Source: Squalus acanthias | Taxonomy: Eukaryota | Direction of reading: 5' to 3' | DNA: 64,000 nucleotides | Assembly (NCBI GenBank): GCA_030390025.1 | Contig: CM059432.1 | Span: forward strand, 85,376,001 to 85,440,000 | Part shown: positions 12,110 through 50,700 of the stretch, piece after piece | Layout: each line of letters begins with the position of its first letter | Numbering within the stretch: the first letter of the stretch is position 1 | Position numbers and translations under genes: made by a program | The notes under the pieces: generated by a model | The model's database searches: none | Told to the model about the DNA's origin: nothing | Seen by the model: the letters and a program-made list of their open reading frames with translations, nothing else

Positions 12110-12286
12110 CTGTGGCTAGGTGCACTTGCATTTGGTCTCCTCAATGTAGAAGAGACCGCATCGTGAGCAGTGATTACAGTATACTAAATTGAAAGAAGAA
12201 CAAGTAAATCGCTGTTTTACCTGGACCTAGTTTTTGGGGCCCTGGAAGGTGGGAAGGGAGGAGGTAAAAGGGCAGGTGTTGCATTG
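12110..12286 (-). mobile_element. PLE GIY-YIG N-terminal fragment
   Basis: Minus strand CNTCPFTSSLPTFQGPKN*VQVKQRFTCSSFNLVYCNHCSRCGLFYIEETK (VY...YIGET-like motif). Confidence 0.8.
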
Positions 12287-16560: not shown

Positions 16561-19500
16561 GGGCTCAATTTTAATTCCCGAGGCGGGTTGGAGTCGGGTT
16601 GCGTGGTGGGCAGGTTCGGGAGCCGCTTCCGGCAGGATCAGCTGCAGATGTCTGATTTTTATTCAACGAGCTTGTTAATTTCAATGAGGCGCGCTGGCCG
16701 GTCCAATGAGTGGGATCGGTTCAGCCGGCCGCCTCTGATGACGTCATAATAGCAGCTGCTTTTAAAGCTGCCATCCAGCCTAAGGCTTTCCATTGTGGTT
16801 TCCTGCATTTCTTTTCAAAGCTATGACTTCTTCCAGAGGCAAGGCAGCTCCTCGTTTTAATGATGAGCCCCTCCAAGTTCTTGTGGATGTTGTCAGAGGG
16901 CGCAGGGAGATTCTCTTCCCTCTTGATGGCCGGAGGAAGCCTCCTCAGCAGACCAAGGCAGCCTGGCTGCGCATTGCTGAGGAGGTGAGCACAAGGTCCA
17001 TTTATGCACGGTCATGGATCCAGTGCCGAAAAAGGTTTAATGAGTATCCCATCTCACTTGCCTTCACTCTGCTTCCCTTCTCTTCTCATTACCAGCACTC
17101 TGCGTTGTAAGCCTCCTCCTTCACATCCCACCTTACTCTTACTTCTCTTGCACCCTTTCCTATCCATCTATGTCTCTGCACTGAATCACTTCAGCATCCT
17201 GCCTATGCACCCCTTAGACTCGCTCTCACTGTCATGCAATGACAACAACTAACAACGCACAGGGAGCTACCTTCCTCTTGGCACCTTACCCCATCTTCGT
17301 CTCCCTCAAAGCTTCTATGGTAGGGATTATTCACACTCACTCCATCACTGTGGCTGAAACACCGCTTGTGTCCCTCCTTGCAGGAAAAGATAGCCCACAA
17401 TAAGAGGGAGCGAGCAATGACTGGAGGAGGAACACCTACCCTAGCAACATTGACCAGTGCTGAGGAGGCTGCTAACGAGATTGTTGGATGTGTCGAGGAC
17501 CTGGAAGTGGGTGATGGAGAGACGGGCACACTAGAGGAAGGTGGTGACATAATAGAGTTTCATCCCTCTCAGAAAGCAATGGCATATGATGTTCATAGAG
17601 AATCGCATTGTATCATCTGCTCAAAAGGATGTGTCTGCTACATCAATATCAGATGTCTAAATCATGCCTTTACTTTCACACAGGACCATCGAGCGTCCCC
17701 CTCCCCACGTTGCAGGACGAAGACCCGGACAAATCCTCAGAGGAACCTGAAGCCTCTGAGGGAGCAGCATCACCAGGACTCAGCGCACCCAGTACCAGCG
17801 CAGCAATGCACACCTTGGTGGGGCCCTCGCGAGTTAGAGTAGTGTTGCCACCTGGTCCATCACAGCACATAAGTGAGGATCAGCAGATGATGGAGGCAGC
17901 GACAGCAGTGAAGAGTCCTCGGCGGAGGTCGCAGGACTCTCCTAGCTCTGCTGAGCTGCATGCAGACACTGTGCCTCTGTGGCCATCCAGAAAAAGAGCG
18001 GTTCGTGAAATACAGGAACAAGTGCAGGTGTCTCTGGAAGGGTTTGCCTCCAGGGTTAGTGCGAGTGTGGAGAGAATGGAGGAGTCCGTCTCTAAAACCA
18101 GCACTGCCGTGGTGGAGGCAATGGCGCATGAACGCACCACCATGGATAGGATGGCAACCTCCGTGGAAAGGCTGGCTACCTCAGTGGAAAGGATGGCTAC
18201 GGCCATGGAGGAAATAAGTCGCCAGAGTCAGGAAAACATGGTGACTGTTCAAAATAGAATGTCATCTCTGGAGGAGCGATGGGCAGCTATTGAGCAGAGA
18301 GACCAGAGCTTCATGGATGTCCTTGTGATGAGGACTGCCAGTGCAGATACGGGTCCTCATGGTCCCCCTGAAGTGCAGCAAGGTGCTCTCCAGCCACTTG
18401 CCAGCACTGAGGTGCGACTGACCCATGAGAGGGATGTTGTTGGCAGGACAGAAGGAAGTGTAGGCTTCTCTCAAAGCGCTCACACGACCATGCCACTGCG
18501 GAGCCCTCGGTCAGGGACCCACTTTGCAGAGACAACTGAGATGGCCGTTTCAGCCCCTGCACAGCCGCAGGAAGAGCAGACTGTTGAAGAGCCCTCCCAG
18601 GCTCCCAAACCCAAAGAACGCCCGCCAAAGGTGTCTAAGCAGGCACAGCATCCTAGTCAGCAAGGTGCCTCTACATCTGCTGAAGCCACAGGGGAAGCAC
18701 CATGTAGAAGCACGCGTAAGAGAAAGATTAAACACCTATAGTCACAAGGAGAGTCACTTGGGTGATGTTTCATTTTTTTCTGACTCTTGCTGGTTTATTA
18801 TCGTTTTGTCATGTGTTAAAGATTAAATTATGTCAAACAGTTGATTGTGTGGCCTATGTGTTATGGGAAATGGCAAAAGCGCATTAAGGGCTCAGGACGA
18901 CTTGCTTTTGTAATGCTAATGGTAAAAGTGATAAGGAAATAACAGGGTATAGCAGAGATGAAGTATGACGTTGGATAAGTGTCGCCTGCAATTACAGAGC
19001 CATATGGTAGCCACCTACGGTTGAAGAGTAAGCTTATGCTAATGTGGCATGGCAGTGTGCATACCCTGGTAGACGGGCAGCAGTGAACTGGAGGGATGCT
19101 GCATTGGTCACAACAGGGAATGCAAGGCGCCCCTCGTCCTCCTCCTCCTCTTCCCAGGAAGATCTGCGCTGAGCCACGCGGCGGCTGCTACTCCTCCGAT
19201 TATGAGGACCAGGATGAGAGGGCATAAATGTTTCCCATGCCCTTGCTATAGATTTCATTTGAGGCAACAATCTTTCAAGCGCACAGTCGAAGTGGCCTGA
19301 AATTATTTCATTCATGCCACACTGCAGATGGGTGTCAGCTTGAACAGTCAGAAGGTCAGTATATGTGCAAAATGTTATCCCATACCTACAACAGCAAAGT
19401 TGTTGCATTTGAATGTCAGCCATGTTTCAGGGGCGCTTTTAAAGTGCTCCACCAATGCATACAAATCATGTCCTCCAGCAACTCGTCTCCTTGAACCTGG

Positions 19501-23337: not shown

Positions 23338-24530
23338 TTTATAGAATCATAGTATCATACAGCACAGAAGGAGGCCATTCAGCCCATTGTGCCTGTGCCT
23401 GTGCCAGCTCTTTGGTAGAGCTATCTAATTAATTCCATCCCCCTGCTCTTTCCCCATAGCCATGTAACTTTTTTCCTTTCAAGTATTTATCTAATTCTCT
23501 TTTGAATGTTACTATTGAATCTGTTTCTACCACCCTTTCAGGCAGTGCATTCCAGATCACAACAACTCGCTGTGTAAAAAAAAATGTTTCCTCATGTCGC
23601 CTCTGGGTCTTTTGCCAATCATCTTAAATCTGTGTCCTCTGGTTACCAACCCTTCTGCCACTGGAAACCATTTCCCTTTATTTACTCTATCAAAACACTT
23701 CATGATTTTGAACACCTCTTTCAAATCTGCTCTTAACCTTCTCTGCTCCAAGGAGAACAACCCCAGCTTCTCCAGTTTCTCCACATAACTGAAGTCCCTC
23801 TAGTAAATTTCTTCTGCATCATCTCCATGCACCCTTGACATCCTTCCTAAAGTGTGGCGCCCAGAATTGAACACAATACTCCAGCTGAGGCCTAACCAGT
23901 GTTTATAAAGGTTTCCTTGCTTTTGTACTCTATTCCTCTATTAATAAAGCCAAAGATCCCCCATATGCTTTTTTAACAGTCTTCTCAACTTGTCCTGCCA
24001 CCTTCAAAGATTTGTGTGCATATACCCCCAGGTCTCTCTGTTCCTGCCCCCCCCCCTTTAAAATTGTACCATTTAGTTCATATTGCCTCTCCTCATGCTT
24101 CCTACCAAGATGTATCACTTCACACTACTCAGTGTTAAATTTCATCTGCGATGTTTCATCTTACAGACACAGACACGCTGGGCCAAATGGCCTCCTTCTC
24201 TGCCATAAATTTCTATGATTCGATGTGTCTGCCCATTTCACCAGTCTGCCTATGTCCTCCTGAAGTCTGTTACTATCTGTCTCATTGTTTGCTATATTTC
24301 CGAGTTTCGTATCATCTGCACACTTTGAAATTATGCCCTATATACCCAAGTCCAGGTCATTAATATATATCAAAAAGAACAATGGTCCTAATATCGACCC
24401 CTGGGGAACACCGCTGTATACATCCCTCCAGTCTGAAAAATAACCAACCATTCACCACTACTCTCTGCTTTCTGTCTGTTAGCCAATTTTGAGTCCATAC
24501 TGCCACTGTCCCTTTAATCCCATGGGCTTT
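23338..24530 (-). mobile_element. CR1 LINE, 5'-truncated
   Basis: LEKLGLFSLEQRRLR, GVPQGS region and CR1 tail. Contains a 66-bp CR1-tail insert at 24155-24220. Confidence 0.9.
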
Positions 24531-27751: not shown

Positions 27752-30600
27752 GTCATAGAATCATAGAAATTTACGGCACAGAGGAGGCCATTCGGCCCAT
27801 CATGTCTGCAACGGTCGAAAAAGAGCTATCCAGCCTAATCCCTACTTTCCAGCTCTTGGTCCGTAGTCTTGCAGCTTACGGCACTTCAAGTGCATATCCA
27901 AGTACTTTTTAAATGTGATGAGGGTTTCTGCCTCTACCACCCTTTCAGGCAGTGAGTTCCAGACCCCCACCACCCTCTGGGTGAAAATATTTCTCCTCAA
28001 ATCCCCTATACACCTCATACCAATTACTTTAAATCTATGCCCCCTGGTTATCGACCCCTCTGCTAAGGGAAATAGGTCCTTCCTATCCATTCTATCTAGG
28101 CCCCTCATACTTTTATACACCTCAATTAGGTCTCCCCTTAGCCTCCTCTGTTCCAAAGAAAATGACCCCAGCCTATCCAATCTTTCCTCATAGCTAAAAT
28201 TCCCCAGCCCAGGCAACATCCTCGTAAATCTCCTCTGCACCCTCTCTAGTGCACTCACATCCTTCCTGTAATGTGATGACCAGAACTGCACGCAGTATTC
28301 TCATTGCGGCCTAAGTCGTGTTTTATACAGTTCAAGGATAACTGCCCTGCTCTTATAGTCTGTGCCTCGGCTAATAAAGGCAAGTATCCCGTATGCCTTC
28401 TTAACCACCTTATCTACCTGTCCTCCTACCTTTAAGGATCTATGGACATGCACTCCAAGGTCCCTCTGATCCTCTGCACTTCTCAGTGTCCTACCATTTA
28501 TTGTGTATTCTCTTACCTTGTTAGCCCTCCCCAAATGCATTACTTCACACTTCTCCGGATTGAATTCCATTTGCCACTGTTCTGCCCACCTGACCAGTCC
28601 ATTGATATCTTCCTGCAGTCTGCAGCTTTCTTCTTCATTATCAACCACACGGCCAATTTTTGTATCATCTGCAAACTTTTTAATCATACTTCCTACGTTC
28701 AAGTCCAAATCATTGATATATACCACAAAAAGCAAAGGACCCAGTACTGAGCCCTGCGGAACCCCACTGGAAACAGCCTTTCAGTCACAAAAACACCCTT
28801 CAACCATTACCCTTTGTTTCCTGCCTCTGAGCCAATTTTGGATCCAACTTGCCACTTTGCCTTGGATCCCATGGGCTTTTACTTTCGTGACCAGTCTGCC
28901 ATGCGGGACCTTATCAAAAAGCCTTGTTAAAATCCATATAGACTACATCAAACGCACTACCCTCATCGACCCTCCTTGTTACCTCCTCAAAAAATTCAAT
29001 CAAGTTAGTCAGACATGACCTTCCCATAACAAATCCATGCTGACTGTTCCTGATTAATCTGTGTCTTTCTAAATGAAGATTTATCCTGTCCCTCACAATT
29101 TTTTTCAATAATTTTCCCACCACCGAGGTTAGGCTGACTGGCCTGTAATTACTCGATCTATCCCTTTCTCCCTTTTTAAACAACGGTACAGGTTGAGCGT
29201 CCAAAATCCGGAGTTCCGGAATGTTCCGGAATCCGGACTCCGGGACGATTGGTGGCAGGATCGTCCGGAATCCGTAAAATGTTCCGGAATCCGGAACTCC
29301 GGATTTTGGACGCTCAACCTGTACTTCAAAAAGCCATTAACTTTTGTTGTCTTTTTTTGAAAAATCCTATGAAAAATGCGAGTGATGCAATAATACTTAG
29401 GTGTTGTGTTTTATCCTCCTTAATCTGCACAGCTCCACTAAGTGTTTCCGCCAGGCTGCGGCCACGACACCACGCTGCCCTGGTGGCCTAGTGTGGGCCA
29501 TCGGATGCTCTGCAGAGCTCGCAGTGTTCCTCCCCTTTAACAGAAGGGGAGGGGCGGAGAAACGCGTCAGCGCTACGCGGAGCGGCCCAGGCATTTCCGG
29601 ACTCGGAACGCGTTTCTGATGTCCGAAATCCGGAAACGCCCGAGCCCAGGTTGCGATATTTCCGGACTTCGGACATCAGAAACACGTTCCGAAGTCTGGA
29701 AAAACACGAAAACCGGCTCGGCCTCGGTCTCGAGGTTGCCGGATTCAGGACGCTCAACCTGTACCACATTAGTAGTCCTCCAGTCCTCCGGCACCACACC
29801 TGTAGCCAGAGAGGATTGGAAAATGATGGTCAGAGCTTCTGCTATTTCCTCTCTTACTTTTCTTAACAGTCTGGGATACATTTCATCCGTGCCTGGGGAT
29901 TTATCCACTTTCAAAAATGCTAAATTCCATAATACTTCCTCTTTCACACTCCTCCTCCCTGATTGCAACTTCTGCATCGTCCCTCTCTTTTGTGAAAACA
30001 GACGCAAAGTATTAATTAAGAACCATACCCATGTCTTCCGCCTCCACATACAGATTATCTTTATGGTCCTTAATAGGCCGTACTCTTACTTTAGTTATCC
30101 TCTTGCTCTTAATGTATTTATAAAACATCTTTGGGTTTTCCATGATTTTACTTGCCAATATTTTTTCATGCCCTCTTTGCTTTCCTAATTTCCTTTTTAA
30201 TTTCACCCCTGCACTTTCTATACGCTAGGGTTTCTGCAGTATTGAGCCCTGTCTTGTTGGGCTTGCTACGTGCTGGCTTAAAAAGTTCTCCTGAATGCAT
30301 TTTAAGAATTCTGCTCCCTCTATACCTTTCACACTAATTTTATCCCAGTTAATATTAGGGAAGTTGAAATCACCTACTATTACTGCCCTATTTTTGCACG
30401 TCTCAGAAACTTGCCTACATATTTCCTCTTCTATCCCACTCTGACTGTTTGGGGGTCTATAGTACACTCCCAGCAGTGTGATTGCCCCCTTTTTTGCTTT
30501 TCAGTTCAACCCATATGGCCTCGTTGGATGATCCTTCTAAGATATCATTCCTCCTCACAGCTGTAATTGTTTCTTTAATCAATATTGCGACCCTGCCTCC
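27752..30600 (-). mobile_element. CR1 LINE (second subfamily), truncated in the endonuclease, carrying a Tigger-like MITE
   Basis: ORFs 27842-28291, 28301-28735 (KFADDTK), 28914-29204 and 30225-30467 (YYRPP, GDFN). Confidence 0.95.
29189..29761. mobile_element. Tc1/mariner-pogo (Tigger-like) MITE with three TIRs
   Basis: TA-CAGGTTGAGCGTCC at 29187. GGACGCTCAACCTG-TA ends at both 29321 and 29761. TA duplication in the host CR1. Many TCCGGA subterminal repeats. Confidence 0.9.
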
Positions 30601-34678: not shown

Positions 34679-35691
34679 AGCTTTTGATTCCAGATTTATT
34701 TAATTAATTAGCTGGATTTGAATTCCCCAGCTGTCGTGGTGGGATCATTAGTCCAGGCCTCTGGATTACTAGTCCAGAAATTGCAAAGTACAAGTGCTTA
34801 AAACTTGTATCCGATTTGAAGATATGTTATCATTTAGTTGTGAGTCACAAGAGAGTAATGACCAGTCTTCTCCCATGTTAATTGTGCTATATATAGTGCC
34901 AACTCTCACTCTGTCTCATCAATTCCCACACACTATTAACCTCACCAGCCAAAAGCCTAGCTACCAAACTTTTAACAAAAACATACAACAATTGCATAGC
35001 ATTCTTTTCAAGCTACAACACAACTCAGGGTTGAGATGAGTTTTATAAGCAGCTTAAACTTAATGTATTTTATTTGGACCCTGCAATATGTTGCAGCCTG
35101 TAACACAGTCATCTGTTATCCAATCCAACTATCTATCTATAGATATATAGAATCATAGAATGGTTACAGCACAGAACGAGGTCATCCGGCCTGTCGAGCC
35201 CATGCCAGCTCTCTGCAAGAGCACTTCAGCTAGTCCCACTCCCCCGCCCTTTCCCCTTAGCCCTGCAAATGTTTTTCCTTCGGGTACTTAAACCAATTGC
35301 CTTTTGAAAGCCACGATTGAATCTGCCTCCACCACCCTTTCAGGCAGTGCATTCCAGATCATAACCACTCGCTGCGTAAAGAGGTTTTTCCTCATGTCGC
35401 CTTTGATTCTTCTGCCAATGATCTCAAATCTGTGTCCTCTGGTTCTTGACCCTTCCGTCAATGGGAACAGTTTCTCTCTATCTACTCTGTCTAGACTCCT
35501 CATGATTTTGAACACCTCTATCAAATCTCCTCTCAACCTTCTCTGCTCTAAGGAGAACAAACCCAGCTTCTCCAGTCTATCCACATAGCTGAAGTCCCTC
35601 ATCCCTGGAACCATTCTTGTAAATCTTTTCTGCACCCTCTCTAAGGCCTTCACATCCTTCCTAAAGTGCGGTGTCCAGTATTGGACACAAT

Positions 35692-36531
35692 GGGCTGGAT
35701 TTTACCAGCCCTGAGGGGTCTGGAGGCGGGACAGCTGGGAAAATGGGAAAAATTGGGAGCGGGTCCCAACCTCGCTCCCAACCCGCCTCCGAACGATCTT
35801 TCCGGGAGGCGGGTCCCCGACTCGCGCAGGGACCCATCTCCTAGCGGCAGGGAGGGGATTAGAGCCAATCAACTGCCTGTTAACAAGTAGTTAACAGGCT
35901 TTTCCCCGTTTTCAGCCTGCTGATGCGGCCTTCCCGATGGCGGGAAACCCCGCCAGGGTCAGCAAGGCGAGCTGTGGGTCTGCTGCAGTGTAAGTGTGTA
36001 AATGACAGCTGCAGAGGTAGTGTGATGGGTGCAATGGTGCACAGGTAAGTATGACAGGTAGTGAGAAATATTTTTAATCTGTTTATATGTATCTGCAGGT
36101 GACTAGATTTGATGTTTCTGTGAAGCCTCATCTGATCGGCAGAATTGACAGATGGCTTCTGCACTCTCACATACAGCTGCCATCTGTTTTCTCCTAAGGA
36201 GAGAGTAATTGGTGAGCCTGGATGCAAGGGCTCACCTTTGGACAGTGATTGTCAGTGTTTGACAGCATCTCAGTGCTGTCAAACACTGACAATTCATCTG
36301 TCAAACAATTATGGTGCCTGTCACTTTAACAAAACCAGCAGATGAAGCATCATGCACTGGCGTCATCTGACACCGGCTTTCCCTTAATTGGCCGGCAAGC
36401 CCACAGGGCGGGTTTAACAAGGCCAATCAAGGGAAAATAGCGTCAGGTCGTCAGACGTCACTGGGGGCGGGACTAGAACCCGAAACCAGCAGTCCCGCTC
36501 CCAACGCGCCTCCTCAGGTAAGATCCTGTCC
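35692..36531. mobile_element. Harbinger-type MITE
   Basis: TIR GGGCTGGATTTTACC / GGTAAGATCCTGTCC (imperfect). AAT TSD at 35689-35691 and 36532-36534. Host CR1 is restored on removal. Confidence 0.88.
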
Positions 36532-36704
36532 AATACTCCAGTTGAGGTCAAACCAGTGTTTTATAAAGGTTCATCATAACTTCCTTGCTTTTGTACTCTA
36601 TGCCTCTATTTATGAATGATGCGGAGATGCCGGTGTTGGACTGGGGTGGACAAAATTGAGAGGTCGCACAACACCAGGTTATAGTCCAACAGTTTTATTT
36701 GAAA

Positions 36705-36746
36705 TCACAAGCTTTCGGAGCTATCGATTGCTCCTTCCTCAGGTGA
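36705..36746 (-). ncRNA. Minimal hammerhead ribozyme, left arm
   Basis: Reverse complement of 37593-37634. Confidence 0.78.
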
Positions 36747-37592
36747 AGTAAATTAGATACAGAATCGCCAAAGCATATATAGATAGAAAACAAAGCATGT
36801 GTACCTTACAATTGCAGACCACTAAATTAAATCAACCTGACTATCTGCCGAGGTGTGATAAAGTTAATTAAGTCAGCCAGGAAGGTACCACATCAAAGAC
36901 ATAGCAAGATACAACTGAGACAATGAGGTGTAGTCGCAGGGGTTCTAACGTGTCAAAAGCTGCCGTCTGTATGTAAAACGAAAAGCTTTAAAATTTTTAC
37001 TTTTTTACTGGGAAAATTTTTACTTTTTTACTGGGAATCACATCTGTGAACAAGCTAACGACGACTCGAGTCCGGATCACGTCATGTATCGTGACATAAA
37101 CCCAAGATCCCGATTGAGACCGTCTTCATGAGTGCGGAACTTGGCTTTCAGTTTCTGCTCGATGATTTTGCGTTGTCGTGTGTTTCTAAGATAGCCAAGT
37201 TCCGCACTCATGAAGACGGTCTCAATCGGGATCTTGGGTTTATGTCACGATACATGACGTGATCCGGACTCGAGTCGTCGTTAGCTTGTTCACAGATGTG
37301 ATTCCCAGTAAAAAAGTAAAAATTTTCCCAGTAAAAAAGTAAAAATTTTAAAGCTTTTCGTTTTACATACAGACGGCAGCTTTTGACACGTTAGAACCCC
37401 TGCGACTACACCTCATTGTCTCAGTTGTATCTTGCTATGTCTTTGATGTGGTACCTTCCTGGCTGACTTAATTAACTTTATCACACCTCGGCAGATAGTC
37501 AGGATGATTTAATTTAGTGGTCTGCAATTGTAAGGTACACATGCTTTGTTTTCTATCTATATATGCTCTGGCGATTCTGTATCCAATTTACT

Positions 37593-37634
37593 TCACCTGA
37601 GGAAGGAGCAATCGATAGCTCCGAAAGCTTGTGA
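37593..37634 (+). ncRNA. Minimal hammerhead ribozyme, right arm
   Basis: UCAC-CUGAGGA-A-GGAGC-AAUCGAUA-GCUCC-GAAA-GCUU-GUGA: core, 5-bp stem II, stem I UCAC/GUGA, palindromic AAGCUU. Confidence 0.78.
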
Positions 37635-40464
37635 TTTCAAATAAAACTGTTGGACTATAACCTGGTGTTGTGCGACCTCTCTATTTATGAAGCCCAGGAT
37701 CCTGTATGCTTTTTTAACCGCTTTCTCAACCTGCCCTGCCACCTTCAACGATTTGTGCTCATATACCCCCAGGTCTCACTGTTTCTGCACCCCCTTTAGA
37801 ATTGTACCCTTTAGTTTATATTGCCTCTCTTCGTTCTTCCTACCAAAATGTATCACTTCGCATTTTTCTGCGTTAAATTTAATCTGCCACGTGTCCGCCC
37901 ATTCTACTATCCTGTCTATGTCCTCTTGAAATCAATGACTATCCTCTTCACTGTTCACTATACTTCCAAGTTTTGTGTCATCTGCAAATACACCCAAGTC
38001 CAAGTCATTAATATATATCAAGAAAAGCAGTGGTCCTAGTACAGACCCCTGGGGAACACCACTGTATACCTTCCTCCAGTCCAAAAAACAACCGTTCACC
38101 ACTACTCTCTGTTTCCTGTCACTTAACCAATTGTGGATCCATGCTGCCACTGTCCCTTTTATTCCATGGGCCTCAACTTTGCTGGCAAGCCTATTATGTG
38201 GCACTTTATCAAACGCCTTTTGGAAATCCATGTATACCACATCAACCGCATTGCCCTCATCAACCCTCTCTGTTACCTCATCAAAAAACTCAATCAAGTT
38301 AGTTAAACATGATTTGCTTTTAACAAATCCGTGCAGGCTTTCCTTAATTAATCCACACTTGTAGAGTGACATTTAGTTTTGTCCCGGATTATCGTTTCTA
38401 AAAGCTTCCCTACCACTCAGGTTAAACTGGCTGGCCTGTAGTTGCTGGGTTTATCCTTACACCCTTTTTTGAACACGGGTGTAATATTTGCGATTCTCCA
38501 GTCCTCTGGCACCACCCCCATATCTAAGGAGGATTGGAAGATTACGGCCAGTACCTCCGCAATTTCCACCTTTGCTTCCCTCAGCATCCTAGGATGCATC
38601 CCATCCGGTCCTGGTGATGTATCTACTTCAAACACAACCAGCCTTTCCAGTACCTCCTCTTTATCAATTTTTAGCCCATCCAATATCTCAACTGCCTTCT
38701 CCTTCACTATGAATTTGCCAGCATTGTCTTCCTTGGTAAAGACAGATACAAAGTGCTCATTTAGTACCTCAGCCATGGTCTCTGCCTCCATGCGTTGGTC
38801 TCCTTTTTGGTCCTTCATCGGCCCCACCCTTTCTCTTACTACCCGTTTCCTATTTATATGCCTATAGAAAAGTTTTGGATTCCTTTTTATGTTAGCTGTC
38901 TGTCTATTCTCATACTCTCTCTTTGCCCCTCTTATTTCCTTTTTCACTTCCCCTCTGAACTTTCTATATTCAGCCTGATTCTCATTTGTATTCCCAACCA
39001 GACATTTATCTGCTTCATCTTACTCTCTATCTCTTTCGTCATCCAGGGAGCTCTGGCTTTGGTTGCCCTACCTTTCCCCCTCATGGGAATGTACCTCAAC
39101 TGTATCGGAACCAGCTCCTCTTCAAGGCAGTCCATTGTTCGATTACAGTTTTGCCTGCCAATCTTTGATTCCAATTTACCCGGGCCAGATCCATTCTTAA
39201 CCCACTGAAATTGGCCGTCCTCCAATTAAGTATTTTTCTCTAGATTGCTCCTTGTCCTTTGCCATAGCTAATCTAAACCTTATGATACTATGATCACTGT
39301 TCCCTAAATGTTCCCCTACTGACTCTTGCTCCACTTGACCCACCTCATTCCCCAGAACCCGATCCAGCAATTCCTGCTTCCTCATTGGGCCAGAAACGTA
39401 CTGATCAAGAAAGTTCTCCTGAACACACTTCAGAAATTCTTCCCCCCTCTCTGCCCTTTACACTATTACTATCCCAGTCTATATTAGGATAGTTGAAGTC
39501 CCCCATTATCACTACTCTATAGTTCTTGCACCTCTCTGTAATTTCCCTGCAAATTTGCTCCTCTATATCCTTCCCACTAGTTGGTGGCCTATAGAATACA
39601 CCTAGTAGTGTAATGGCACCTCTATTGTTTCTTAACTCTAACCAAATAGATTCTGTCTTTGACCCCTCCAGGACATCCTCTCTCCCCAGCACTGTGATAT
39701 TCTCCTTAATAAATACTGCCACCCCACCTCCTTTCTTTCCTTCCCTATCTTTCCTGAACACCTTATATCCAGGAATATTTAGTACCCAATCCTGCCCTTT
39801 TTTGAGCCAGATCTCTGTTATCACCATGACATCATATTCCCATGTGGCTATTTGCACCTGCAGCTCTACAACCTTATTTACCACACTTCGTGCATTCACA
39901 CACATGCACTATAAACCTATCTTAGACCTTTTTGTGCTCTCTTAGTCTGAATCCACCTAATACCTTACTATTTCTTACTGCTATCTGTCTCTCCCAATCC
40001 TTTTTGCACCTTTCTCCTTTCGAATGCTTCCTCCTGGTGCCTATCCCCCTGCCAAATTAGTTTAAACCCTCCAACAGCACTAGCAAACCGCCCCGCGAGG
40101 ATATTGGTCCCGGCTCTGTTGAGGTGCAACCTGTCTGGTCTGTACAGATCCCACCTCCCCCTGAACCGGTCCCAATGTCCCAGGAATCTATAAAGCCCTC
40201 CCTCCTGCACCATCTCTCCAGCCACGCATTCATCTCCTCTATCCTCCTATTTCTATACTCACTAGCTCGTGGCACCGAGAGCAATCTGGAGATTACTATG
40301 TTTGAGGTTCTGCTTATTGATCTCTTTCCTGGCTCCCTAAAATCTGCCTGCAGGACCTCATCCCTCTTTCTACCTATGTTGTTGATACCGATATGGACCA
40401 CGACCTCTGGCTGTCACCCTCCCCCCTCAGCATGATCTGCAGCCACTCAGTGACATCCTTGACT

Positions 40465-47787: not shown

Positions 47788-50700
47788 GGGCTGAATTTTT
47801 ACCTTGCCGTCGGGGTGAGTGCAGGGGGTGGGGGGGTTGTGGATCGCGTCGGGAACCCGGATGTTGAAGCGGCGCGTCTTGCAGTGGCTTTTTAACTAAA
47901 CCACTGCAATTAAATCAGACTTACAGGTTTCCCGCCCAATTAACTGGAGCGGGTCCGATGACATCACGGATGACTCAACTTCAGCTGAGATATTTAAAGG
48001 AGCAATGCACAGATGACAGTTGAAGGTTGGTGGAGGTGCAAGAGAAGTTGTTGGGGAAGAAAGTGGATTGTGTTAAGAGTAAGTTGCTTGTTGGTAAAGA
48101 AATTTATCTTGCTGGATAATCAAAAATGCAAGCTCAGCACCAAAAAGCTGCCCTGAGATTCAGTGATGCCCCCCTGGAACTCCTGCTCCAAGGAGTCAGG
48201 GCTTACAGGGAGGTCCTCTTCCCTGCTGACAGGAGGAAGAGCCAGCTGCTGAGACCAAGAAGGCATGGCTGGAGATCTCGGAAGAAGCGAGCAGCAGGAG
48301 TGTGATAGCCAGGTCGTAGATCCAGTGCAGCAAGCGCTTTAATGACCTCATGAGGTCAGGAAAGGTGAGTACAATGCACATTGTCCTACACCCTGATGTA
48401 CGTGTCACCCCAACCCCCTCACTCTGCCTTCCCACGCCTACTCCTGCACATCACTCCTCGCACCAACCTACTTTGCAGACGCACCCAAACCTCTCTGACT
48501 ATGCACTTACTCACATCCCCATCTGACCATTCACCACTGACACTCACCCTCATCTTAATAGAATCATAGAAATTAACGCCACAGAAGGAGGCCATTCGGC
48601 AATGTCACGCCTCTCCCTCATAATCACCCTCTACAGGTGTTGCCCATCCATCCCTTACACTCATTCCATGACTCTCACTCAAAAGTCTCTTGTTTCCCTC
48701 CTTGTAGGAGAAGAGAGCACAGAACACCTGGGAGAGGCAGAGAACCGGAGGTGGCGCACCAGTAATGACACCACTGACTGCAGCAGGGGAGGAGGTGCTG
48801 GAAATCAGCGGTGTTGCTGGCGGTGGGAGATGGAGAGAGGGGGCCTCCTAACTACCTCAGTCAGAGCCCCACATGCTGCCTCGTATTCCGATGGCCGAGT
48901 CTGCCACTGTACTGGTGCAGGAGGAGCAGTCTTTGGCAGGGCCCTCACAGGCTCCAAAACCCAGAGGACGTCCGCCAATAGTGTCTAAGCAGTCAGAACA
49001 GGGAAGTGAGCAGCCTGCCTCTATCTCTGCTGAAGCCACAGGGGTTGCACGTAGCAGAAGAAGAAAAAAAGACACAATTGTATATGCACAAGGGTATGCA
49101 CATAGGTGTGTTATAAAATGTTAGAGGGATATATTTCTGTTGAAGTTATGAGCCAGATAAATTTATTTCTTTGCACCACTTTCCCGTCTTGTCCAGTTTT
49201 GCCTGCTACCTGGAAAGTGACCTTGTCAGTTGGAGTGAATGGTAAGACATTACTTAACTTGGAGCAATGAGTGTGTGTGACAGGAATGGTTTGGTCATGT
49301 TAGGACTGCTTTGTGGTGGTGGTGGGATGAAGTTGGTTCAGCATCTAGGTGCCAAATGGGTGCACCTCAACTAAATCGTGCCATTATGAGGCCATCCCAG
49401 GCCTCCCTGGACAGCAATGTGCGCTGCCACTGGTTCCATGTCCACTTCAGGTTCCTCCTCCTCCTCCTTGTGTTCCTCCTGCTCCTCCTCATCCTCCTCC
49501 AAAGAGGCTCTGTGCCTTGCTCCTCTTGCAGCTCCAATCCTCGATGCTGCACTCTGTTGTGCAGAGCGCAGCATATGACAATCATTCTGGAGACCCTGGC
49601 TAGTGCGTATTGAAGAGCTCCTCCAGATCTGTCCAGGCATCTGAAGCACACCTTCAGCATGCCGATTACTTGCTCTGTTCCACATCTCGTCGTCATCTGG
49701 CTTTGATTGTAGTACTCTTCGGCCTCATTGCTTGGCCTCCTCAAGGGTGTCTTCAGCCACAATGGCCAGTCTGCTCTCACTTTGCTTTCATTGGGGAGAT
49801 TCAACAAGCCCGTGAATCCCACGGACAGCCAGTAAAAGCTGCAACATCAAGTTAAAAAGGCTTTTAATAGCCTCTTAACAAACTCTCAACTACTTTAATT
49901 AGCTCACCTGCCTCTCCCAAGCAGGTCTCTGGCGTGCTGACTAACGCACCTGAGATAAAGGTGGAGGCCGGCGGGTTGAAGCCGGCTTCCCGACGCACTG
50001 TCAATTTCAGCACTTTTCATAGAATCATAGAAGGTTACAGCACGGAAGGAGGCCTTTTCGGCCCATCGTGTTCATGCCGACCAACAAAGAGCTATCCAGC
50101 CTAATCCCACTTCCCAGCTCTTGGTCCGTAGCCCTGCAGGTAACAGCATCCCAAGTGCACATCCAAGTACTTTTTAAATGTGGTTAGGGTTTTTGCCTCT
50201 ACCACCCTTTCAGGCAGTGAGTTCCAGATCCCCACAACCCTCTGGGTGAAGAAATTTCCCCTCAAATCCCCTCTAAACCTTCCACCAATTACTTTAAATC
50301 TGTGCCCCCTGGTTTTTGACCCCTCTGCTAAGGGAAATAGGTCCTTTCTATCCACTTTAGGCCCCTCATAATCTTATACACCTCAATAAGGTCCCCCCTC
50401 AGCCTCCTCTGTTCCAAGGAAAACAAACCCAGCCTATCCAGTCTTTCCTCATAGCTAAGATTCTCTACTCCCGGCAACATCCTTGTAAATCTCCTCTGTA
50501 TCCTCTCTAGTGCAATCACATCTTTCCTGTAATGTGGTGACCAGAACTGCACGCAGTACTCTAGCTGAGGCCCAACTAGTGTTTTATACAGTTGAAGCAT
50601 AACCCCCTGCTCTTGTATTCTGTGCCACGGCTAATAAAGGCAAGCATTCCATATGCCTTCTTAACCACTTTATCTACCTGGCCTGCACTCCAAGGTCCCT

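Follow-up and report, generated by a model that had tools for sequence, protein, structure and literature searches.

A head-to-head pair of truncated Penelope-like element copies in a CR1 element of Squalus acanthias, most likely an inert by-product of integration

We analysed a 64,000-nucleotide stretch of the genome of Squalus acanthias (NCBI GenBank assembly GCA_030390025.1, contig CM059432.1, positions 85,376,001 to 85,440,000 of the forward strand; this whole stretch is called the window, and its first letter is position 1). The palindrome at 36617-37678 is very probably a single 5'-truncated insertion of a Penelope-like element (PLE), consisting of two head-to-head copies within an old CR1 long interspersed nuclear element (LINE), and is best regarded as an inert by-product of integration. 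Sequence and tools revealed two outward-facing copies, a tail at one end only, a 13-bp target-site duplication (TSD), an empty counterpart of the site, and hammerhead ribozyme motifs in the layout of the dimer-dependent type. The insertion is real but ordinary, being one more example of an already published layout. An initial annotation of the window had recognised a young PLE palindrome and suggested that it may silence its own family.

The insertion lies between two identical 13-bp repeats, CTCTATTTATGAA, in agreement with the TSD reported in the initial annotation. This 13-mer occurs twice in the window (n=2), whereas a chance match at a fixed place is expected with a probability of 3e-8. 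The annotated arms of ~490 bp with about four mismatches and the ~40-bp spacer were confirmed by measurement: the inverted arms (36661-37149 and 37190-37678) are 489 bp each, differ at four positions (36755, 36771, 36835 and 37147) and are separated by 40 bp. The end previously given as 37691 takes in the right TSD, and the element proper stops at 37678. The repeat finder stretched the arms to 497 nt by taking in 8 nt of the right TSD, where a fifth mismatch occurs. Both copies point outward, and copy 2 begins 40 nt further into the element than copy 1; the spacer is the extra 5' sequence of copy 1 itself and not foreign DNA (Table 1). The one-sided tail at 36617-36660 is a feature absent from the initial annotation.

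Table 1. Positions in the window of the two PLE copies, their parts and the flanking host sequence
Feature	Position	Strand	Remarks
Host CR1 LINE remnant, left flank	36531..36603	.	resumes rightward from 37692 to ~38470
Left TSD, 13 bp	36604..36616	.	part of the host CR1 LINE; last base also fits the outer end of the PLE family
Copy 1, 573-bp 5'-truncated PLE	36617..37189	sense on -	end of the open reading frame (ORF), 3' untranslated region (UTR), hammerhead, tail
One-sided 3' "tail"	36617..36660	-	44 bp, or 41 bp when the 3 nt shared with the right TSD are assigned to the element; copy 2 is without a tail
Minimal type-I hammerhead, copy 1	36705..36746	-	C3 at 36742; cleavage predicted after 36709
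Last 36 codons and stop of the PLE ORF	37077..37187	-	C-terminal end of the endonuclease region; GIY-YIG motif outside
40-bp spacer	37150..37189	-	additional 5' part of copy 1, continuing its ORF in frame
Turn-around point	37190	.	1-nt overlap; base fits both the continuation of copy 1 and the start of copy 2
Copy 2, 489-bp 5'-truncated PLE	37190..37678	sense on +	without tail
Minimal type-I hammerhead, copy 2	37593..37634	+	C3 at 37597
Right TSD	37679..37691	.	first 8 bases fit 7/8 of the next element bases: microhomology at the tail-less end

In copy 1, a 3' UTR of ~335 nt separates the ORF stop from the hammerhead, which in turn lies ~92 nt from the end of the tail. The initial annotation had placed a GIY-YIG C-terminus at the centre of the palindrome. 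The last ~36 codons of the ORF are indeed present in copy 1 and 22 in copy 2, but the GIY-YIG motif itself, which would lie upstream of these codons, is absent, and the region is assigned by homology. The copy cannot encode a reverse transcriptase (RT) or an endonuclease (EN). We found no direct repeat of the PLE terminus in the window, hence no direct (tandem) pair of pseudo-long terminal repeats (pLTRs) around an ORF. Its absence is what one would expect of a truncated copy and excludes an autonomous element, though not descent from a PLE family. Both arms share a 23-bp tandem duplication in the 3' UTR (36990-37035 and 37302-37349), which must therefore have predated or accompanied the insertion. 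The CpGs are intact, as annotated: the observed/expected ratio is 0.92 in the element compared with 0.39 in the window, each arm has 18 CpGs, and 0/4 of the arm mismatches fall in one.

The window is rich in repeats (45% self-repeated, with LINE-type RT remnants), and self-BLAST aligned the host CR1 to CR1 copies at 23874-24527 and 28374-29177 with 69-82% identity, in which RT-like ORFs were found. An empty CR1 paralogue at 23874-24054 of the window takes up both flanks of the insertion in one end-to-end alignment, in which they overlap by exactly the 13 duplicated bases (23936-23948). We also compared the locus with sequencing runs. Four of the 21 matching runs (X1, X3, X15 and X21) were aligned to 36000-37220, which comprises one arm with the spacer and 31 bases of the other arm, and on which the right junction is visible only as a loose end. 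No RNA run was among the matches listed, which says nothing about expression. X1 and X3 are DNA contig runs, X15 is guessed to be RNA, and X21 consists of raw reads from another organism (17 reads only). The empty site was found in 115-129 contigs per DNA run at each listed place, which leave the left flank at 36613 or 36616 and continue in the right flank.

Both ends of the element coincide with ends used by other family copies. At the outer end, 36616, 103 contigs of X3, 101 of X1 and 20 of X15 as well as 3 reads of X21 start their alignment, with mixed flanks (agreement 0.37). The second cluster of family ends, at 36652-36663, occurs in 12 of the best 15 of 56 joints and in 3 raw reads of another organism. 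Family contigs run through the turn at 37190 and then diverge into other sequence (21 in X1 and 3 in X15). At position 37147, the family base is A in >99% of the summed depth of X1 and X3; the base of the left arm is private, and the right arm has the family base. The runs of the four other coded organisms (B-E) share 0.36-0.40 of the query words, about the share of the query taken up by the element, which hints at near-identical family copies across species.

Several further joints were observed around the site. In 12 of the best 15 of 56 joints, at varied positions and in up to three runs, the CR1 site 36602-36616 was joined to the tail-less family end at 36652-36663. The pattern suggests that a single AT-rich CR1 site, similar to the inner end of the element, was hit repeatedly and independently; the comparison covered only 86 bp of CR1, and a hot spot is not established. 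Single contigs with the joints 36930->37192 (X1) and 36708->36665 (X3) resemble the centres of other inverted or tandem family copies. The same CR1 also contains an 840-bp multi-copy insertion at 35692-36531, flanked by a 3-bp duplication (35689-35691 and 36532-36534), with imperfect terminal inverted repeats and a perfect 20-bp inverted repeat at 36248-36293. It resembles a non-autonomous Harbinger-type element.

The family was assigned through the peptide encoded by the ORF end, which matched 8 proteins among 12 candidates; those matches with a named source come from sharks. The peptide is 87% identical to P0002 (643 aa, Pfam RVT_1) and 76% identical to P0004 (Pfam GIY-YIG). By proxy of these two proteins, the element would be a PLE with an RT and, at its C-terminus, an EN of GIY-YIG type, both domains having been truncated away here. 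Before its GIY-YIG core, the linker of P0002 has CHSNLCKTC at residue 505, which is of the CX4CxxC form, and the EN is C-terminal. A CX2-5CxxC motif in the RT-EN linker is described for Neptune and Nematis but not for Penelope/Poseidon (PMC8557442; this paper, PMC3846280, PMC3681739, PMC4209133, PMC8053094, PMC10587355, PMC10964541 and the preprint 10.64898/2026.07.22.740005 are cited here from the available portions of their texts). The likeness to the Neptune clade lies in the linker motif and the C-terminal EN of P0002, and the difference in the motif being outside the truncated copy; by this proxy, the element probably represents a Neptune-type PLE family of cartilaginous fish, with Nematis sharing the motif. 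The family is very abundant, with 18,962 and 33,048 contigs aligned on a stretch that also contains other repeats, and a 21-nt family pattern found 0 loci in metagenome contigs.

Three of the protein matches, P0001, P0006 and P0007, are annotated at their source as a shark XRCC5 (Ku80) isoform, a FAM204A isoform and a Pyrin-domain protein, and all of them end in the PLE C-terminal peptide. Exonisation of PLE ends or gene-prediction artefacts are possible explanations for such proteins. Elsewhere in the window, 12134-12283 on the minus strand matches the linker and GIY-YIG region of P0002 weakly (E 0.18, 31% over 52 aa) and is possibly an old remnant of another PLE family.

One hammerhead per arm on opposite strands, as stated in the initial annotation, was recovered by a pattern search. 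It gave 2 matches in the window against 0.16 expected, and 0/100 shuffles reached 2; the two matches are mirror copies and not independent. Rfam detected no hammerhead in the window at the gathering threshold, nor at E<=10 in 37500-37700, where the scan returned one chance-level microRNA match (E 0.49). The hammerhead was therefore called from the pattern match together with the descriptor in the literature. In the motif, stem I is 4 bp long, A9 is followed by an extra A, stem II has 5 bp and an 8-nt loop, helix III is a palindromic AGCU without a loop, and U17 is present. The motif agrees with the descriptor of minimal hammerhead ribozymes (min-HHRs) in its conserved core, the extra base between 9 and 10.1, the G10.1-C11.1 pair and the palindromic 15.2-16.2. 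The lack of a helix III loop places it in the dimer-dependent hammerhead type. For a non-LTR retrozyme, head-to-tail units with hammerheads on the same strand would be present; we rejected this candidate because the motifs lie on opposite strands and no third match exists in the window.

In vitro, lone motifs of this type gave no cleavage. A single min-HHR of Schistosoma mansoni showed no detectable cleavage, and its dimers and trimers cleaved weakly (PMC4209133). In a preprint of 2026, 8/9 Xenopus retrozyme dimers were without cleavage (10.64898/2026.07.22.740005), and the hammerhead of the PLE PAc of Anolis cleaved only with protein and was dispensable for insertion in vitro (PMC11167929). 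By analogy, the single hammerhead on each strand is predicted to need a second sense copy or a protein to cut. The catalytic-like dimer that we modelled (-23.5 kcal/mol) had no advantage over a pair of monomers (-26.0) or over the best cofold (-36.9), core contacts being outside the model. Stem II on the plus strand had a pairing probability of 0.99 in the isolated motif, which fell to 0.07 when the whole right arm was folded and to 0.000000 for the whole element; across stems I and II, the values were 0.78-0.99 in the isolated motif versus 0.000000 in the whole-element fold. The earlier claim that the hairpin blocks ribozyme cleavage therefore holds as far as the motif is buried in the prediction; however, a lone dimer-type motif probably cuts little anyway, and with one motif copy per strand the blocking by the hairpin probably adds little.

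We next considered how the insertion formed. The GIY-YIG endonuclease would nick both strands 13 nt apart at an AT-rich site, and the left 3' end would prime cDNA from the outer (tail) start of the RNA, with synthesis halting after ~573 nt. The RT would then probably jump onto its own new cDNA ~40 nt back, with 1-nt pairing, and copy back, leaving the 40-nt spacer. This second copy would halt at the tail boundary and be joined to the other target end by the 7-of-8-nt microhomology. We lean towards this fold-back route. The truncation points are 40-41 nt apart, which would occur by chance in 4-19% of cases if they were independent and mean lengths of 1000-200 nt are assumed. Moreover, it is the tail-bearing copy that owns the spacer, and only 0.8% of window sites, or 1.9% of ATT/AAT-bearing sites, would be expected to show a 7-of-8 match.

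Several points weigh against this account. The cDNA end at the turn has no predicted pairing (P = 1e-4) and only a 1-nt overlap, so that a template jump would be required for fold-back; on this probability, we rejected self-priming by base pairing at the turn. In vitro, both strands of the target are extended by PAc from a pair of RNA start sites bounding its tail, a behaviour that speaks for twin priming, and its initiation was also reported without homology to the cut DNA (PMC11167929). The inertness of the locus is argued from the lack of coding capacity and from published single-motif assays of other PLEs. The best-matching run shares only 0.59 of the query words, and the runs may be of related species. 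Finally, no contig or read among the matches listed for the four runs spans the locus's own junctions, nor is the right junction as a loose end among them. This last point would fit a fold-back artefact of assembly, which is nevertheless barely conceivable, as the arms differ at four sites, at one of which only the right arm has the family base, the unmirrored flanks join into one continuous CR1 with a 13-bp duplication, and both ends are natural ends of the family.

The behaviour of PAc brings in twin priming, a serious alternative that we nonetheless hold less probable than fold-back. Both nicked target ends would prime on the element RNA, one at the outer start (with tail) and the other at the inner start (without tail), and the two cDNAs would be joined at the centre by the 1-nt overlap into an equally inert product. 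In PAc, both strands are cleaved and extended, and the tail is bounded by the two RT start sites (PMC11167929). Here, the second end cluster of the family includes the tail-less end, and the turn offers no self-pairing. The family base in the right arm opposite 37147, where the left arm differs, fits independent copying and also later mutation. On the other hand, independent truncation points would differ by only 40-41 nt, and PAc belongs to the Poseidon clade, whereas the closest relative of the present family has a Neptune/Nematis-type linker. Fold-back and twin priming give the same product, and one locus cannot decide between them; other routes are unlikely.

It is very improbable that the palindrome post-dates the insertion, whether by duplication in inverted orientation at a break or by another, independent insertion at the same site. 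Repeat insertions are conceivable, since other family copies join the same CR1 site (12 of the best 15 joints). However, a single clean 13-bp TSD frames both copies, the flank is not mirrored, no target sequence lies between the copies, and the arms share the 23-bp tandem duplication.

The arms diverge by 4/489 or 0.82% (Poisson 0.22-2.1%). With the epaulette-shark mutation rate of 7e-10 per base per generation (PMC10587355), this corresponds to an age of ~5.8 million generations (0.8-75 million over both intervals), on the assumption of arms without differences at insertion and of a rate valid for this species. If CpGs mutate 10 to 5 times faster, the finding of 0/4 differences at CpG has a probability of 0.10-0.26. 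Some differences may accordingly be copying errors made at insertion, and the copy may be much younger. Compared with the host CR1, whose identity to its paralogue is ~80%, the element is certainly much younger. The description "young" is appropriate in this relative sense only, because a divergence of 0.8% could equal millions of shark generations.

As suggested in the initial annotation, RNA of the whole element is predicted to fold into one long, near-perfect hairpin (-935.5 kcal/mol). Long double-stranded RNA (dsRNA) in vertebrates is mainly a substrate of ADAR. Should an outside promoter read through the element, the resulting ~490-bp RNA hairpin would likely serve ADAR incidentally and not act as a silencing device. 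Among 161 ORFs (>=60 aa, non-self-repeated parts), we recognised no host exon; short exons or a very long intron would escape this search. The Pfam cut-off was passed by 2/161 ORFs, with Myb/SANT (16784-17107) and DDE_Tnp_4 (49370-49846), and 3 more were sub-threshold only; the former two are presumably Harbinger-type transposon genes. In the family contigs of X15, 9 A>G places were found versus 8 in each DNA contig run, which is a family-level count and uninformative on editing or on this locus.

The proposal that the locus is transcribed, forms the long hairpin and supplies small interfering RNAs (siRNAs) or edited dsRNA silencing the family in trans is one that we consider decidedly unlikely. 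The predicted full hairpin buries the ribozyme, and siRNAs match the inverted regions of Penelope copies in transgenic Drosophila melanogaster. In that precedent, however, silencing was inefficient (PMC3681739). In addition, no transcription unit was recognised, the truncated copy is without an ORF start, and the family is so abundant that one locus would add little. Among the oocytes of 12 vertebrates, endogenous siRNAs (endo-siRNAs) were found only in mouse, in a sample without sharks according to the available portion of that work (PMC10964541). Judged by titles and the beginnings of abstracts, we found no report on shark PLE palindromes or shark endo-siRNAs.

The further suggestion of a DNA cruciform is not upheld either. 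In linear DNA, the duplex (-1333.4) is favoured by ~94 kcal/mol over the pair of hairpins (-618.9 and -620.8). In yeast, spacers of 9-10 bp abolished fork arrest and cut breaks by 80%, and 12-bp spacers still broke (PMC8053094). A cruciform is hence unlikely with a spacer of 40 bp, and a transient hairpin may still form in single-stranded DNA.

The single locus matters little by itself, being one more truncated PLE insertion of published layout, and its value is that of a data point. Its clean TSD, its tail on one side, its turn of 1 nt and the microhomology where the tail is lacking are features open to scoring across many copies, which bears on the choice between fold-back and twin priming, a step left open by PMC11167929 and, in its available portion, PMC8557442. 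In a wider scenario, shark genomes would contain many head-to-head Penelope palindromes, and the intronic ones, this locus included, would form genome-wide dsRNA hairpins that feed ADAR and Dicer and restrain the family. We regard this scenario as quite improbable. If it were true, PLE integration would itself give rise to silencers of PLEs in a vertebrate, something reported until now for Drosophila; if shark palindromes are processed into small RNAs, the Drosophila observation would extend to vertebrates.

Published PLE layouts bear out the annotated combination of an inverted copy and minimal hammerheads. Each structural feature has a counterpart in reported PLE insertions. Among these features, a neighbouring 5'-truncated copy in inverted orientation and a tail of 30-40 bp on one side have been described (PMC8557442), as have inverted pLTRs with 9-10-bp TSDs and a 31-bp tail, for which self-priming was proposed (PMC3846280). 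The present insertion likewise has an adjacent inverted 5'-truncated copy, a tail at one end with recurring ends, and a TSD, of a kind variable in length, at an AT-rich site. With canonical EN-containing (EN+) PLE units (PMC8557442; Pen2a_Av, PMC3846280), it shares the head-to-head inverted copy, the one-end tail, the TSD around the unit and the hammerhead in the terminal repeat; it differs in the truncation of both copies, which leaves no ORF and makes the unit a nearly pure palindrome. Here the tail measures 41-44 bp compared with the published 30-40, and the TSD 13 bp compared with 8-10 in Adineta vaga. PAc, the Poseidon element of Anolis carolinensis (PMC11167929), has in common with it a tail with two recurrent ends, an AT-rich target and a hammerhead without a self-sufficient helix III. 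In contrast, PAc belongs to another clade, and its hammerhead overlaps the ORF start, whereas it lies ~335 nt downstream of the stop here. The min-HHRs of metazoan PLEs (PMC4209133) share the short helix I, the extra nucleotide after A9, G10.1-C11.1, the palindromic 15.2-16.2 without loop 3, and the occurrence as opposite-strand pairs, which are 100-700 bp apart in S. mansoni and ~850 bp apart here. Helix II has 5 bp here instead of the 7-8 of S. mansoni, and the available portion of that paper names no sharks. Finally, the rearranged Penelope copies of Drosophila (PMC3681739) share inverted arms able to give dsRNA; siRNAs were observed there, whereas here the hairpin is predicted only.

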